From positions 1 through 64,000 of the IMG/VR virus record IMGVR_UViG_3300035696_000018: 64,000 nucleotides of DNA. The stretch is one strand, 5' to 3'. Below, piece by piece: positions 6,259-9,488 of the stretch (position 1 is its first letter; the number at the start of each line of letters is the position of its first letter). The notes under the pieces were generated by a model, which was not told the origin of the DNA, did not search any database, and was given only the letters and a program-made list of their open reading frames with translations. This stretch comes from a virus. Position numbers and translations under genes: made by a program.

Positions 6259-6416
6259 GGGGATGTGGACAAGAGTGACGAAAGTCGCCTACCGGGAGGT
6301 AGGAGAAGGTTCCTTTAGTAAGCGACCTACGGCGGGAATAATCCGGAATAAGACCGCACGAGGACACGTTGAACCCAGTTACCGCATCGTAGGTTCAAAT
6401 CCTACTGTCCCCACCA
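6259..6416 (+). ncRNA. tRNA-scaffolded RNA (158 nt)
   Basis: GGGGATG/TGTCCCC-ACCA, GTAGG-TTCAAAT-CCTAC; multi-hairpin core. Confidence 0.6.
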
Positions 6417-6754
6417 ATTTGTATTGGTTGCAAACGGTACTACGGGCAGTCAGATGCCCGTTAAAAGCTGGGTTCCTTATGGGAATAGGCGTCTTTCTAG
6501 CCCACTTGCCGAGGCAAAAGGCGGTGGGACGATTTCATCTTAAACAATTTGCCACAGGCCAAGTGGAGTAGCACGCCCAGTCATCACAGACGAAGTAAAG
6601 GCGGCACTTGTATCTTGGGTGAACTGCGGGCAATCTTTTTCAACACCGAAAAATAACGATACGTATCGGTTTCACGATTTACAACACAAACGTTGTATTT
6701 CGTGACGCATGTTGAAGTGGGACGACGTTAGCCGCTCTAAAAAATCGTCTTTAT

Positions 6755-6830
6755 CAGGTGCGTGATGTATTTGGAAGCATCTCAGACTGTGAATCTGACA
6801 GAATGGGTTCGAACCCCATCCACCTGACCA
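6755..6830 (+). tRNA. tRNA with GTG (His) anticodon but Pro-like acceptor end
   Basis: TCAGA-CT-GTG-AA-TCTGA; CAGGTG/CACCTG-ACCA. Confidence 0.7.
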
Positions 6831-6901
6831 ATTTTGCCTACTATGGTTTTCCGCCCGTGAACACTGTGTTAAAAAGCAGTAGGTCAAGTAGTAGAGTCAA
6901 C

Positions 6902-6976
6902 GCACCCGTGGTGATAATGGAATCATGCGTGGCTTCGAACCACGAGAATAGGGGGTTCGATTCCCTCCGGGTGTAC
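6902..6976 (+). tRNA. tRNA-Arg(TCG)
   Basis: CGTGG-CT-TCG-AA-CCACG; abuts the next tRNA without full CCA. Confidence 0.85.
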
Positions 6977-7051
6977 CCCTCGGTAGCTGAGATAGATTAG
7001 CGTCTGCCTGAAGAGCAGAAGACACTGGTGCGATACCAGTCCGAGGGACCA
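6977..7051 (+). tRNA. tRNA-Phe(GAA)
   Basis: TCTGC-CT-GAA-GA-GCAGA, CCA. Confidence 0.85.
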
Positions 7052-7120
7052 TTTTTTTGTGTTTATACGCTAAACACGATAAACTGGAAGTATGCGGTAA
7101 AACGTATATTTCGGTTTTAT

Positions 7121-7194
7121 GACGGAGTAACTCAATGGCAGAGTACTGGGTTGAAACCCCGGCGTTGGCCGTTCGATTCGGCCCTCCGTTGCCA
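7121..7194 (+). tRNA. tRNA-Phe(GAA)
   Basis: CTGGG-TT-GAA-AC-CCCGG, CCA. Confidence 0.75.
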
Positions 7195-7198
7195 CTTT

Positions 7199-7322
7199 AA
7201 GATGCGTACAGCCATAAACAATGCTACGTAAACCCGTGCGTCGGTGTGTGCAAATCCACCCCCGTCCACCATATGGACGGGTAGCTCAGTAGTAGAGCGG
7301 CGGGATGCAAAAACCGCATCTT
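7199..7322 (+). ncRNA. circularly permuted tRNA inside an ACAGC-family stem (Y-RNA-like)
   Basis: 3' tRNA half (CCCGT, T arm, CCCGTCC-ACCA), TAT, 5' half (GGACGGG, D arm, GCGGG), closed by AAGATGCG/CGCATCTT. Confidence 0.7.
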
Positions 7323-7351
7323 GTATTTCCCTCCTGATATGTAAATGTGTT

Positions 7352-7942
7352 ATGAAACACATTTGTCACAGCGACGGTTGTCCCGGTGCCGACATGGCAT
7401 GGGAGAATGAAGGAAAGCGTTACGGTGTCGAAACCATTGCCTACTCTTTCCGCAATCATATTCAAGAGAGCATGAACCCTAAAATCCTAACGGTTGAAGA
7501 ACTGGCCGAGGGTTGGGAGCACGTCAAGATTGCAGACAAGACTTTGAAAAAGAATGTCGAAAGTCTTACGTCTCCTTACATGCGAAATCTTCTCTGTCGA
7601 AACTGGTTTCAAGTCAAAAATGCCGATGCAATTTTCGCAGTCGGGAAATTCGGCTCCATACGAGGAACAGTGGATGGAGGAACGGGATGGGCAGTTCAAA
7701 TGGCAGTTGACAACAAGAAGCCCGTCTATTTTTTCGACCAAACACCGCCGACATGCAACATTGGTGGTGCTCCAATGTGGTCATATTACGACTACAAAGT
7801 GAATCTTTTCATTCCGTTGACCTATTGCCCAAGTTTGCCAGAAAACTTCGCTGGCATTGGTACACGGGATTTGAACGAGTATGGAAAGTCAGCCATCTGG
7901 ATGATTTTGCATACCAATCTGGCCCATTCGTCTATCAGCTAG
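7352..7942 (+). CDS. SLOG-superfamily (YpsA/MoCo-carrier-like) protein
   Basis: HSDGCPGAD, GGTGWAVQMA and FAGIGTR motifs. Confidence 0.6.
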   Translation: MKHICHSDGCPGADMAWENEGKRYGVETIAYSFRNHIQESMNPKILTVEELAEGWEHVKIADKTLKKNVESLTSPYMRNLLCRNWFQVKNADAIFAVGKFGSIRGTVDGGTGWAVQMAVDNKKPVYFFDQTPPTCNIGGAPMWSYYDYKVNLFIPLTYCPSLPENFAGIGTRDLNEYGKSAIWMILHTNLAHSSIS

Positions 7943-7995
7943 GACTACTCGTTTTCAGCGAGAGAAACTCGGAGCGTCACCGGGATGGGCTACCA
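7921..7995 (+). tRNA. tRNA-Glu(TTC)
   Basis: CTCG-TT-TTC-AG-CGAG, CCA. Confidence 0.8.
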
Positions 7996-7999
7996 ATTT

Positions 8000-8181
8000 G
8001 TGGGGATAACATAACAGCAGTGTGCTGCCCGTGGAGGGCAGAGTGAATATGCATATCTTAACTCGGAGTAGTTACCCGAGGGCGGGTATGAAATACATGA
8101 CACCACAGCAAGTTCCCGTAGTCTAACTAACGCAAGGGGATTTGTTTGCGATGAGGGTGCAACTCCTTCTCTACCACACCA
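8000..8181 (+). ncRNA. tRNA-scaffolded RNA (~180 nt)
   Basis: GTGG/CCAC-ACCA ends, T-like arm GAGGG-TGCAACT-CCTTC, hairpin-rich core. Confidence 0.45.
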
Positions 8182-8184
8182 ATT

Positions 8185-8319
8185 TAGGTACGCACAGCGA
8201 AAAAACATGCTTATGTCAAACCGCTGATGAGAGTGCAAATCTCTCTGCCCCGGCCATATCGGGGTATAGCTTAAGTAGCCAGAGCGGCGGTCCCGCAAGG
8301 GAGCAAAAAAACGTACCTA
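8185..8319 (+). ncRNA. circularly permuted tRNA inside an ACAGC-family stem (Y-RNA-like)
   Basis: TAGGTACG-C-ACAGC; ACCGC, T arm GAGAG-TGCAAAT-CTCTC, TGCCCCG-GCCA-TAT-CGGGGTA, D arm, GCGGT; CGTACCTA. Confidence 0.7.
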
Positions 8320-8324
8320 GCTCT

Positions 8325-8398
8325 GCGGTATTAGTTTACTGGAAAAACACGACATTGCCAATGTTGAGACAGCAGTTCAATTCTGCTATACCGCACCA
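8325..8398 (+). tRNA. tRNA-Gly(GCC)
   Basis: CGACA-TT-GCC-AA-TGTTG, CCA. Confidence 0.85.
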
Positions 8399-8403
8399 AT
8401 TTC

Positions 8404-8482
8404 GGAGTCGAAGCCATCAAAGACGGGCACCCGCCTTTTAAGCGGAATAATCGAGTGGGGGCAGTACCCATCGGCTCCACCA
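8404..8482 (+). tRNA. tRNA-Lys(TTT)
   Basis: CCGC-CT-TTT-AA-GCGG, CCA. Confidence 0.8.
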
Positions 8483-8486
8483 ATTT

Positions 8487-8560
8487 CAGACGGTAGTTAA
8501 ATCAATAGACGCTCGGCAAGGGGCCGAGAAATGTGGGTGAAATTCCCATCCGTCTGACCA
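8487..8560 (+). tRNA. tRNA-Pro(AGG)-like, atypical
   Basis: CAGACGG/CCGTCTG-ACCA, CTCGG-CA-AGG-GG-CCGAG. Confidence 0.55.
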
Positions 8561-8564
8561 GCTT

Positions 8565-8807
8565 GCCAACATGGTGTGTTCGGTGCCAATGGGGCGTGAG
8601 TAAACATACCGAAATCGTATCACCAGCAGTTGATAACATCGCAATGGGCTGTAAAACGCTCGTGGGTGAAAGCCCCACAAGGTCAACTGTAAGGAACGGA
8701 ATAAGTATGTGTAGGGGCGTCGAAGGTGCTGGATTCAATAGTAGCACGCCGTAGCACATTGCGATTACCAAGCGGGGGTCTGGGTGCAAGTCCCAGTGTT
8801 GGCTCCA
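8565..8807 (+). ncRNA. tRNA-scaffolded RNA (243 nt), Thr-type acceptor
   Basis: GCCAACA/TGTTGGC-TCCA, CTGGG-TGCAAGT-CCCAG, internal ATCGCAATG/CATTGCGAT helix. Confidence 0.6.
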
Positions 8808-8812
8808 CTTTT

Positions 8813-8919
8813 GCCTCCTTAGTCTAACCACCCCTTAGCCGGGGACAGACGGTACGAAAGACGCACGGCCCGGCGACGTAAGCCGTAGGACGATGGTGCA
8901 AATCCATTAGGAGGCTCCA
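8813..8919 (+). ncRNA. tRNA-Thr-like RNA with D-loop and anticodon-loop expansions
   Basis: GCCTCCT/AGGAGGC-TCCA; ACGGC-CCGGCGACGTAA-GCCGT. Confidence 0.6.
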
Positions 8920-8925
8920 ATTTAC

Positions 8926-9035
8926 GAGATGCCCGTTTCTACAGCAAATCCCAAAAGGAAAAGTGATTCATTGAACATGAAAAACCAGTTGGGTTCAAAC
9001 CCCGACACCCTCGCAAGAGGCTGGGCATCTCGCCA
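8926..9035 (+). ncRNA. ACAGC-family stem element with T-arm-like hairpin
   Basis: GAGATGCCC..ACAGCAA...GGGTTCAAACCCC...GGGCATCTC-GCCA. Confidence 0.55.
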
Positions 9036-9041
9036 ATTTAT

Positions 9042-9151
9042 CGCACTGTAGTTGGCCGTAGGACCGAGGCGTACCTCGGAGGTATCGGCGAATAATCAAC
9101 GCCTTACTAGGAGTTTGGAAACATTAGGTTCAAATCCTATCGGTGCGACCA
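9042..9151 (+). ncRNA. tRNA-scaffolded RNA (110 nt)
   Basis: CGCACTG/CGGTGCG-ACCA, TAGG-TTCAAAT-CCTA. Confidence 0.55.
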
Positions 9152-9157
9152 TTTCAT

Positions 9158-9240
9158 GGGCATGTGGGTTAAGACGAAAAGCACAGTCGCTAGGTCGAGA
9201 GCCTAGACCTTTACAGGTGCGAGTCCTGTCATGCCTACCA
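9158..9240 (+). tRNA. tRNA-Leu(GAG)-like, enlarged D loop, short variable arm
   Basis: CTAGG-TC-GAG-AG-CCTAG, CCA. Confidence 0.55.
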
Positions 9241-9345
9241 CTTTGTAACATGTATGTGCCTCAATGGCTCATTGTGGAACGTGTATGTTACGGTCTTATA
9301 TATCGGTCGTTATCCGGGTTTAGGTCCGATATATGAAACCATAAT

Positions 9346-9488
9346 GCCTCTGTAGCTTAAAAATTAGGACCAGAGCAGCGGGCCAATGTGTGCTCTTTTT
9401 GGAGCCAGCAAGACTTAGGGGGTTGTTTGACCTCCGATGACACTACTTGTGCCCGGGTATGGGTGCCCCAGCCCCATTGGAGGCTCCA
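9346..9488 (+). ncRNA. tRNA-scaffolded RNA with ~65-nt anticodon-arm insert, Thr-type acceptor
   Basis: GCCTCTG/TGGAGGC-TCCA, D arm, CGGGC..GCCCG stem. Confidence 0.55.

Follow-up and report, generated by a model that had tools for sequence, protein, structure and literature searches.

Oversized tRNA-framed RNA genes with added payloads in the tRNA operon of a giant peat phage

The window, by which we mean the whole analysed stretch of 64,000 nucleotides, belongs to a 107-kb record (about 30% of the genome) of a giant phage from peat. It carries, in one operon, ~45 ordinary-sized tRNA genes and about ten oversized tRNA-framed RNA genes, which retain the two ends and the corner of a tRNA, with 50–200 bases added (Table 1; units are called below by their first position). 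A strict scan for tRNA frames found 55 on the + strand of positions 1–28000, versus 2, 0, and 1 in three control stretches, and 32 of the 33 copies of CCAATTT lie within the tRNA array. The spacers between neighboring units are 3–6 nt long. Nine long units were inspected for their flanks: U at position -1 and an encoded CCA are present in all of them (9/9 each), and an NTTT trailer in 8/9. The U-1 and the NUUU trailer are the same as those of the canonical tRNAs in the array. Genes for HNH and PD-(D/E)XK nucleases are interspersed among the array tRNAs. The sigma-70 promoter lies 12 nt past the last unit, at the end of the RNA block, and its region is also found in a relative from a pond. The public runs listed as carrying the stretch include no RNA runs. 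The Rfam RNase P model gave no match at 22515–22777, even at E<=10, and no genes for ThrRS, RtcB, or a TROVE protein were found in the record or in four relatives.

Table 1. Positions and main characteristics of the tRNA-framed units and associated features (stems as paired/total positions).
Feature	Position	Strand	Characteristics
tRNA-Val(CAC)-like gene	2557..2663	+	canonical D arm, ~30 extra nt, without CCA
tRNA-framed unit, 90 nt	5084..5173	+	GCC...GGC acceptor 7/7, A73, CCA; T arm 5/5, UUCGACU
162-nt unit	6092..6253	+	outer acceptor 7/7, short D arm, ~70 nt of hairpins, T stem 4/5
158-nt unit	6259..6416	+	acceptor, two adjacent GNRA-type hairpins (GAAA, GGGA), T arm, ACCA
182-nt unit	8000..8181	+	7-bp acceptor with one bulged A, T stem 5/5, ACCA
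Thr-type unit, 243 nt	8565..8807	+	GCC...GGC, U73, CCA; acceptor 7/7, T stem 5/5
Nested 63-nt mini-tRNA-shaped module	8627..8689	+	inside 8565-8807; fold
Thr-type unit, 107 nt	8813..8919	+	D stem GUCU/AGAC, T arm, UCCA (constrained fold)
110-nt unit	9042..9151	+	acceptor 7/7, T stem 4/5, ACCA
Thr-type unit, 143 nt	9346..9488	+	acceptor 7/7, UCCA; T stem 5/5 only with 9-nt T loop
Sigma-70 promoter, perfect consensus	9500..9527	+	TTGACA-16-TATAAT, 12/12 matches

All long units share a 7-bp acceptor, an adjacent T arm, and a 3' NCCA. The frame is regular in 6259-6416, 8565-8807, and 8813-8919 (acceptor 7/7, T stem 5/5, 7-nt T loop, NCCA), while deviations are seen as the bulge in 8000, the 9-nt T loop in 9346, and the 4/5 T stem in 9042 and 6092. 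The frames of acceptor, T arm, and NCCA, proposed earlier from the sequence alone (hereafter, the sequence-only reading), are therefore real, as judged by their 7/7 and 5/5 stems and by the 55 strict frames against 0–2 in the controls. The same reading described the D/anticodon domain as replaced, which mostly does not apply to the D domain: a D stem is kept in most units, and the site of the extra RNA is the D loop, the anticodon arm, or the variable region. In 8813, 9346, 9042, and 6092, the D stem has 4 bp, and its loop is enlarged or contains a hairpin. A standard anticodon arm (5 bp, 7-nt loop, U33, purine at 37) is found in none of the listed units.

Measured against the Rfam tRNA model (RF00005), two segments stay below the gathering threshold of 29 bits, namely 6259-6416 (25.4 bits) and 6182-6250 (18.5 bits), and 8000, 8565, 8813, 9042, 9346, and 5084 give no match even at E<=10. 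Over the payloads no Rfam family reaches its cut-off, and a permissive scan gave no match there either. The payloads fold barely better than shuffled sequences (z-scores from +0.4 to -2.1), are not repeats of one another, and show complementarity to the 107-kb record of at most 14–15 nt. When all single deletions were submitted to ARAGORN, no tRNA was obtained for 8000, 8813, 9346, and 5084, and only odd loops or mismatched-stem ACC/AAT calls for 6259, 8565, and 9042; a tRNA is restored by a single deletion only in 5940 and 6092. A class of intron-containing tRNAs was considered and rejected, as the removal of a single insert gives a complete tRNA only in the neighboring 5940-6085, a tRNA-Asn split by a 71-nt insert. 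Group I and group II introns gave no Rfam match at gathering score.

The units differ in the size and position of the added RNA. The 55-nt payload of 5084 (z -0.33) shows no recognizable D or anticodon arm. This unit begins 8 nt past a terminator-like hairpin (5047-5076). The interior of 6092 contains a near-complete tRNA-Arg(UCU)-like body (6182-6253, 18.5 bits as tRNA) and repeats the 5' acceptor/D sequence. Removal of ~87–92 nt results in an ARAGORN call of tRNA-Arg(tct) in 125 variants versus ~2 in shuffles, and 6092 may be either a tRNA-framed RNA or a gene-replacement scar. In 6259, ~80 nt occupy the variable-arm position according to cmscan, the "anticodon" loop has 6 nt, and the payload z-score is -0.55. 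Homology of 6259 with the 146–161-nt units of the L022/L055 family, which are homologous to each other, was not demonstrable. The 146-nt payload of 8000 forms three hairpin domains (z -1.88), and its T loop is UGCAACU; the unit lies 4 nt downstream of the CCA of its neighbor unit 7921-7995 and is followed by the next one after 3–4 nt. In 8565, an extended hairpin is located at the D-arm position, the payload measures ~150 nt (z -0.65), and there is no anticodon arm. The module nested in this unit is closed by a stem of 8 bp and contains a single hairpin followed by a second one that resembles a T arm (loop UGAAAGC), which is also the layout of the 71-nt insert in tRNA-Asn 5940-6085.

The unit 8813 has a hairpin within the D loop and an extra hairpin after the D arm (payload z +0.40). 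Its anticodon-like arm consists of a 4-bp stem and the 7-nt loop GACGUAA, with CGU at 8877-8879 and A33, and the CGT-AA noticed in the sequence-only reading is indeed present at 8877-8881; another fold, in which the loop has 12 nt, differs by no more than ~1 kcal/mol. In 9042, a ~40-nt hairpin is found in the D region, and the anticodon arm is cut to 3 bp with a 4-nt loop (payload z -2.09). The D stem of 9346 (GCUU/GAGC) closes a 14-nt loop, and its anticodon stem (9379-9383/9451-9455) surrounds a 67-nt payload of two hairpins. The gene at 2557-2663, correctly described before as having no CCA, resembles an ordinary tRNA more than it does the other units: it passes RF00005 (39 bits at 2560-2661), and ARAGORN with introns allowed reports Val(cac) with a 16-nt insert.

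The acceptor ends point to the origin of three units. In related phages, GCC...GGC together with U73 is present in 13/13 tRNA-Thr and in 0/146 other tRNAs, and the corresponding set of G1-C72, C2-G71, C3-G70, and U73 is found in 8565, 8813, and 9346. Four Thr-type ends had been proposed; all four show the GCC...GGC pairing as described, but 5084 carries A73, unlike all tRNA-Thr of the related phages, which have U73, and GCC with A73 does not occur among 225 canonical tRNAs. On the basis of these identity positions, 8565, 8813, and 9346 are considered descendants of duplicated tRNA-Thr genes, which acquired additional arms while their anticodon loop was lost. Related phages also contain Thr(UGU) tRNAs of 84–92 nt with extra variable arms, and the units can thus be seen as part of a graded series. 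Oversized Thr-type units of 126–152 nt recur in other large phages (L045, L046, two in L111, and L113), and two of them sit 7–8 nt behind a canonical tRNA-Thr. The build of 9346 is repeated in L045:2020-2164, L111:2804-2955, and L113:3788-3937, and distant phages again show this size class and a hairpin in the D loop. The constancy of the end in these relatives is partly circular, as they were located by searching for GGC-U-CCA. In a MAFFT alignment of four Thr-type units, the frame aligns and the payload does not.

The payload helices of 9346 differ from those of the pond relative by three double compensatory changes (9383/9451 C-G to U-A, 9419/9434 G-C to U-G, and 9423/9430 U-A to A-U), with a simulated chance of 1.5e-5 and with the relative represented by contigs of low depth that come from two runs of a single study. 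The 9346 payload is thus under structural selection, which speaks against plain decay. In the pond homologue of 6092, pairing is preserved at 5 changes and disrupted at 6, and indels are located in the anticodon-like arm. The pond relative also has a homologue of 8857-8926, from the 8813 unit. No payload homologues of 6259, 8000, 8565, and 9042 were found with blastn in related loci and phage records. This search, in which every unit was compared with 95 related loci and five complete records of related phages, gave no relative of a long unit; the matches were only to canonical-size tRNA-like units (8404, 9158), canonical tRNAs, and a neighboring ORF. Exact patterns taken from the 5' portions of 9346 and 6092 had no match in IMG/VR, a loose gapped pattern gave no new member after filtering among the matches listed, and a T-arm pattern had five matches in 185,579 species genomes, all coding-like and without a tRNA frame.

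The observed anatomy and flanking grammar, together with the Thr ancestry and the structural selection on one payload, are best accommodated if the units are non-decoding tRNA-derived RNA genes with added payloads, i.e. tRNA look-alikes that would engage a tRNA-handling factor, and this we hold to be somewhat probable. Each unit would be a separate RNA gene in the tRNA operon, with a 7-bp acceptor, a T arm, an encoded CCA, and in most cases also a D stem, and with folded RNA added in the D loop, at the anticodon-arm site, or in the variable region. The array would be transcribed as a polycistronic precursor, from which RNase P would cleave at the U-1/+1 junction, while 3' trimming would halt at the encoded CCA. 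The tRNA frame would confer defined ends and tRNA-like stability. Lacking an anticodon arm of 5 bp whose 7-nt loop contains U33, the units would not decode, and most of them are regarded as unable to read codons. The payload or the acceptor end would then engage a host or phage factor that handles tRNA. Release of stable RNAs by tRNA processing had been suggested in the sequence-only reading, and the grammar shared with the neighboring tRNAs (U-1, CCA, NUUU, and spacers of 3–6 nt) makes it a natural inference; its further proposal of payloads as decoys, aptamers, or antitoxin mimics is speculation.

A less likely origin, which nevertheless deserves some weight, is that some or all of the units are by-products of heavy homing-nuclease traffic in the array: tRNA genes hit by insertion or by cut-and-replace events, left with residual 5' pieces and junk sequence between their ends, tolerated, and functionless. 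The nuclease genes among the tRNAs would fit such events, as would 6092-6253, with two copies of its 5' acceptor/D sequence around an insert and an inner tRNA-Arg-like body, and with many pair-breaking changes and anticodon-like-arm indels in its pond homologue. The weak z-scores of the payloads and the unalignable payloads of the Thr-type relatives are also in its favor. On the other hand, the acceptor, T arm, CCA, and U-1 are intact in all units, compensatory changes preserve the helices in the 9346 payload, distant phages share the size class and the D-loop hairpin, and no insert-free DNA form of 6259, 8565, 8813, 9042, or 9346 was seen in four metagenomes. It is more doubtful that the units are working tRNAs, either expanded decoders (8813 as a tRNA-Thr CGU) or precursors with removable inserts that would yield Thr and other tRNAs. 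The 7-nt loop that 8813 can form, with CGU followed by AA, agrees with this possibility, and so do the decoding-type Thr tRNAs of 84–92 nt with extra arms in related phages, the split tRNA-Asn next door, and the tRNA introns of Lak phages, including one in Thr(TGT) (PMC6784885). The loop of 8813, however, has G32 and A33 in place of the near-universal U33, on a stem of 4 bp. The units 8565, 9346, 6259, 8000, and 9042 lack an anticodon loop, and none of them is turned into a tRNA by a single deletion; several separate inserts would need removal from each RNA, and no RtcB was found in the record. The proposal of cryptic Thr tRNAs in the sequence-only reading fails for 8565 and 9346, which have neither an anticodon loop nor a rescuing deletion, and may hold only for 8813. 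Canonical tRNA-Thr is absent from the record, as had been stated, but this has little weight because Met and Cys tRNAs are also absent and the array runs off the contig start.

Comparably improbable, or slightly more so, is that the Thr-type units retain their Thr acceptor identity since the host ThrRS still charges or binds them as non-ribosomal look-alikes. They would act as sponges for ThrRS, EF-Tu, or defense toxins that modify acceptor ends, or as donors of activated threonine, and the payloads would tune the role. In a second variant, nested mini-tRNA modules such as 8627-8689 and the insert of 71 nt in tRNA-Asn could be excised by RNase P together with 3' tRNA-processing enzymes and the RNA resealed by an RNA ligase, which, if true, would be a splicing route without dedicated intron machinery. 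Very improbable is an identity as Y RNAs of the bacterial type (YrlA-like), which would tether a Ro60/Rsr protein. YrlA has a tRNA-like module and occurs in phages (PMC4201824), weak YrlA matches are found at the neighbors 7199-7325 (21.7 bits) and 8186-8319 (17.6 bits), and 6259 has one GACGAAAG match to the motif GNCGAAN0-1G. This single match has a chance expectation of ~0.07, no TROVE gene is found in the 107-kb record, and the long units are not permuted and have no YrlA match.

Unexplained tRNA-like stable RNAs have been recognized in phage tRNA clusters since the T4 era. The present window adds about ten tRNA-like units in one operon, a clear route for three of them, and Thr-derived units of the same kind in other large phages. 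Should the units, preferred here as non-decoding tRNA-derived RNAs, prove to be decoys or regulators acting on the host tRNA machinery, they would be a widespread, unannotated class of phage effector RNA and a natural counterpart of the engineered tRNA scaffold. The tRNA finders and Rfam miss such units, and therefore phage "intergenic" RNA of this kind is under-annotated.

Several known systems offer a comparison. In tmRNA, as here, an acceptor/T-arm domain is joined to a large non-tRNA domain. Identity as tmRNA was rejected: ARAGORN made no such call, the Thr-type units have C3-G70 and not G3-U70, no tag reading frame was detected, and the Rfam tmRNA model gave only sub-threshold partial matches (8455-8531 and 23032-23155), outside the long units. 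In the "tRNA scaffold" of Ponchon and Dardel (PMC3753655), the functional parallel drawn in the sequence-only reading, a chosen RNA is embedded in a tRNA frame, which lets the cell process and stabilize it; that scaffold is man-made, and the natural units may gain stability in a similar manner. In M. smegmatis, RNase P cleaves YrlA, to which CCA is also added (Chen et al. 2014, PMC4201824). In YrlA a long Ro60-binding stem closes the tRNA-like module, and the gene lies beside that for Ro60, whereas the present units keep the normal tRNA order and match no such model, with no Ro60 gene found in the record. Lak megaphages have "enigmatic" tRNA introns, and a tRNA may be encoded within the Thr(TGT) intron (Devoto et al. 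2019, PMC6784885). In both cases oversized tRNA genes lie in the tRNA regions of very large phages, and the Lak tRNA-Thr insert parallels the module 8627-8689. The Lak inserts, however, reside within otherwise complete tRNAs with an anticodon, which fits only 5940-6085 here; the present units have no anticodon loop, and their inserts are at several sites.

The closest parallel is species 1 RNA of T4 (rnaC, ~140 nt), a stable RNA whose gene is arranged head to tail with tRNA genes, like the present units, and for which no function has yet been established (PMC9697503). Its T arm (5/5, loop UUCGAAU) adjoins an acceptor-like end-to-end closing stem (5/7), and location in a phage tRNA cluster, a T arm, and an end-to-end closing stem are all found in the present units. 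In T4 rnaD no T arm was found in this analysis. In contrast to the present units, rnaC has a closing stem of only 5/7 and no encoded CCA, and there is no sequence similarity; the present units keep D stems, and three have a Thr-specific acceptor end. By analogy with T4 species 1 RNA, the units are best read as non-decoding, tRNA-derived, probably stable RNAs.

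The tRNA array occupies one strand of positions 1-28,000 and holds 34 tRNAs by ARAGORN or 37-42 by Rfam; because it begins at the contig edge, it is probably incomplete. The virus record is 106,775 bp long (the window is its first 64 kb), with a completeness of ~30% (CheckV), and genes for Ro60, RtcB or ThrRS were not found in it. DNA runs from peat metagenomes contain the window, pond metagenomes hold partial relatives, and the public runs listed include no RNA run with its sequence. No RNase P RNA was detectable with Rfam. A terminator-like hairpin ends 8 nt upstream of the unit at 5084-5173, and 12 nt past the end of that at 9346-9488 begins a perfect sigma-70 promoter.

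tRNA frames were scanned as a CCA after the discriminator, a 7-nt strand pairing 7/7 upstream, and an adjoining 5-bp stem with a 7-nt loop. The + strand of 1-28,000 contains 55 strict frames, whereas its complement contains 2 and the remainder of the window yields 0 and 1 for its two strands; 32 of the 33 CCAATTT copies on the + strand also lie inside the array. The sequence-only reading, that long units keep the acceptor stem and T arm, is largely confirmed, with its anatomy corrected. Strict frames are present in 6259-6416, 8565-8807, 8813-8919 and 5084-5173, and frames with one deviation in 9042-9151 (4/5 T stem), 9346-9488 (9-nt T loop) and 8000-8181 (single bulged A in the acceptor); units are named below by their start. 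Consecutive units are separated by 3-6 nt. The long units show U at -1 (9/9), an encoded CCA (9/9) and an NTTT trailer (8/9), the same grammar as in the canonical tRNAs of the array (U-1 in 23/34, CCA in 33/34). The unit boundaries are thus well supported by the spacing and by flanks matching those of canonical tRNAs.

Coordinates and structure of tRNA-framed units, substituted base pairs and odd-T-loop tRNAs
Feature	Coordinates	Strand	Description
Unit 8813	8813-8919		D stem GUCU/AGAC, hairpin within D loop; second extra hairpin 3' of D arm
8813, anticodon-like arm	CGU at 8877-8879		4-bp stem, loop GACGUAA
Unit 9346	9346-9488		D stem GCUU/GAGC, 14-nt loop; 5-bp "anticodon stem" around 67-nt two-hairpin payload
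Unit 9042	9042-9151		D region holds ~40-nt hairpin; anticodon arm of 3 bp with 4-nt loop
Unit 6259	6259-6416		weak D arm, 5-bp stem with 6-nt loop, ~80 nt at variable-arm position; 25.4 bits (cmscan)
Unit 8565	8565-8807		extended hairpin in D position; ~150-nt payload including nested mini-tRNA-shaped module 8627-8689
tRNA-Val-like unit	2557-2663		essentially tRNA-Val plus extra bases; 39 bits (Rfam)
Unit 6092	6092-6253		outer acceptor and D arm, two hairpins, repeated acceptor/D segment, then tRNA-Arg(UCU)-like body
9346, compensatory pair	9383/9451		C-G to U-A; both pond runs
9346, compensatory pair	9419/9434		G-C to U-G
9346, compensatory pair	9423/9430		U-A to A-U
Oversized Thr-type unit	L046:2799-2931		133 nt; 8 nt behind tRNA-Thr(CGU)
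Oversized Thr-type unit	L113:3788-3937		150 nt; 7 nt behind tRNA-Thr(GGU)
Oversized Thr-type unit	L045:2020-2164		145 nt
Oversized Thr-type unit	L111:2804-2955		152 nt
Oversized Thr-type unit	L111:1531-1656		126 nt
Unit junctions	7995/8000, 8181/8185, 8560/8565, 8807/8813, 8919/8926	+	spacing
Unit junctions	9035/9042, 9151/9158, 6085/6092, 6253/6259	+	spacing
Odd-T-loop tRNAs	504-580, 1058-1131, 1301-1378, 1541-1615, 2673-2748, 3213-3287, 8404-8482, 19228-19301		~75 nt
Odd-T-loop tRNAs, further members	2311-2384, 7921-7995, 10655-10732		~75 nt

All the listed long units lack a standard anticodon arm (5-bp stem, 7-nt loop, U33, R37). The D domain, previously described as replaced, is usually retained, as in 8813 and 9346. 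For 8813, a second fold, with a loop of 12 nt, has about the same stability, and the first two elements of 6259 are thermodynamically GNRA-type hairpins (loops GAAA and GGGA). The long unit 6092 had been missing from the earlier list. Each possible single segment was also deleted and the products were scored with ARAGORN against shuffled controls. A standard tRNA is restored well above the controls only in 5940-6085 (tRNA-Asn) and 6092-6253 (the inner Arg-like body); single deletions in 6259, 8565 and 9042 yield only abnormal-loop calls, and those in 8000, 8813, 9346 and 5084 yield no tRNA call.

Ninety-five loci of related large phages were retrieved via the conserved ORF 7343-7942. Among their 159 distinct ARAGORN tRNAs, a GCC...GGC acceptor with U73 is found in 13/13 tRNA-Thr and 0/146 others, so that 8565, 8813 and 9346 bear a Thr-specific end; the Thr-type assignment holds for these three and fails in part for 5084, which has A73 (a GCC start with A73 occurs in 0/225 tRNAs). 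In the relatives, most tRNA-Thr genes follow the ORF homologue within 0.2-2.5 kb (in one locus they precede it), and the three units occupy the matching position relative to the ORF. A canonical tRNA-Thr gene is indeed lacking, as had been noted, which means little because Met and Cys tRNAs are absent from the window too. Oversized Thr-type units are also found in relatives, the constancy of their end being partly circular because relatives beyond the ORF-linked loci were sought by a GGC-U-CCA end. Four of these units resemble 9346 in having U8-A9, a 4-bp D stem that covaries, and a T loop of 8-9 nt starting with UGCC; their D loop starts with AAC (AAA in 9346), and a hairpin lies inside the D loop in L111, L113 and 8813. 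Their payloads cannot be aligned. Some relatives carry longer Thr(UGU) tRNAs (84-92 nt) that have an additional hairpin in the variable arm and a normal anticodon loop, which gives a graded series from canonical through expanded decoding tRNAs and 8813 to units without an anticodon. The best-supported reading is that 8565, 8813 and 9346 derive from tRNA-Thr duplicates.

Neither the 95 loci nor five complete related records yielded a DNA-level homologue of any long unit. Contigs from four metagenomes were compared against positions 5000-9600, and a pond relative has homologues of 6092, 7921, 8404, the 3' half of 8813, and 9346 (identity ~87-90%). Nine substitutions are listed for 9346; six make up three base pairs of a structure that had been predicted using only the window sequence, and pairing is kept in 3/3. 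In 200,000 simulations the chance of three doubly hit pairs is 1.2e-4, and of three all keeping pairing 1.5e-5, which indicates that this payload is under structural selection. For 6092 the picture is mixed: among the listed changes, which are not all the differences, 5 keep pairs and 6 break them, and indels fall within the anticodon-like arm. Payload folding energies scarcely improve on those of dinucleotide shuffles (z of -0.55 for 6259, -1.88 for 8000, -0.65 for 8565, +0.40 for 8813, -2.09 for 9042, -0.60 for 9346, -0.33 for 5084 and -0.75 for 6092), which weakens the idea of structured payloads. No Rfam family matches the payloads.

Several other elements were observed. In the tRNAs of ~75 nt with unusual T loops (GGCAGYA/GGCGGCA or AGCGWMR, not UUCRANY), the anticodon loops are normal or nearly so (Lys UUU/CUU, His GUG, Pro UGG, Asp GUC, Glu CUC/UUC, Val GAC); most are missed by ARAGORN, and the same T loops occur in the related phages L002, L003, L022 and L045. 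The unit at 8487-8560 (74 nt, tRNA-shaped) has the anticodon-loop sequence CAAGGGG, without U33, and a T loop UGAAAUU, and overlaps a partial alpha-tmRNA Rfam match (34.7 bits, under the cut-off). Circularly permuted tRNA-like modules lie at 7199-7325 and 8186-8319, in the order T arm, 3' acceptor, CCA, short loop, 5' acceptor, D arm, each with a long terminal closing stem; they give weak Rfam YrlA matches (21.7 and 17.6 bits, respectively), in a record where no Ro60 gene was found. At 5180-5287 a 108-nt unit without a T arm has ends that pair 7/7, followed by ACCA and an ATTT trailer; a homologue of 5207-5291 is present in the pond relative. The 77 nt at 5299-5375 are 93.5% identical to L022/L069:8980-9056, with an adjoining ORF only ~49% identical; they match no Rfam family, occur elsewhere in IMG/VR only in that contig, and may represent either a conserved RNA that lacks annotation or one end of a mobile element.

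ORF 7343-7942 (199 aa, no Pfam match) has an Atlas model that resembles DprA/SLOG-type folds, and its stop codon lies within the following tRNA-like unit. It is kept in ~95 large-phage contigs, many of those checked adjoining tRNA genes, and some relatives carry a fusion to NADAR or DUF4326. The 338 nt at 6417-6754, between two units, hold no convincing ORF or tRNA call; pond contigs cover 6363-6770 with 0 differences, versus 10-13% in neighbouring parts, and summed contig depth is elevated at 6386-6539, a bin that includes the T arm of 6259. In two related phages, L022:9808-9953 and L055:4078-4238 are homologous tRNA-framed units of 146-161 nt (GGGRYUA...UARYUCC-A-CCA) with conserved payload motifs. 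They are a second oversized family, whose kinship to 6259 is not demonstrable.

The long units are best read as non-decoding tRNA-derived RNA genes with tRNA-like maturation. RNase P would cut at the U-1/+1 junction, as for tRNAs, and 3' trimming would end at the encoded CCA; the acceptor/T-arm half is sufficient for tRNA-processing enzymes. The earlier interpretation is borne out in part, where the U-1/CCA flanks fit tRNA-type release and in the Thr ancestry of three units; a cryptic Thr tRNA does not fit 8565 and 9346, which lack an anticodon loop and from which no single deletion gives a standard tRNA. HNH and PD-(D/E)XK nuclease genes are interspersed among the tRNAs, so insertion or replacement scars are plausible for some units, 6092 above all.

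Among the closest known cases for such non-decoding RNA genes are T4 species 1 RNA, whose T arm pairs 5/5 and whose closing stem pairs 5/7 (checked here), and YrlA, another tRNA mimic handled by tRNA-processing enzymes via its acceptor/T-arm half (PMC4201824). The tRNA "introns" of Lak megaphages, one of them within a tRNA-Thr, which may hold a tRNA (PMC6784885), are also close, and the engineered tRNA scaffold (PMC3753655) is a functional analogy. In the literature searched, no oversized tRNA-like RNA of Thr origin was found described from a phage, and the function of T4 species 1 RNA is still listed as unknown (PMC9697503). We conclude that the units are a variant form of a known, still unexplained kind of phage RNA.
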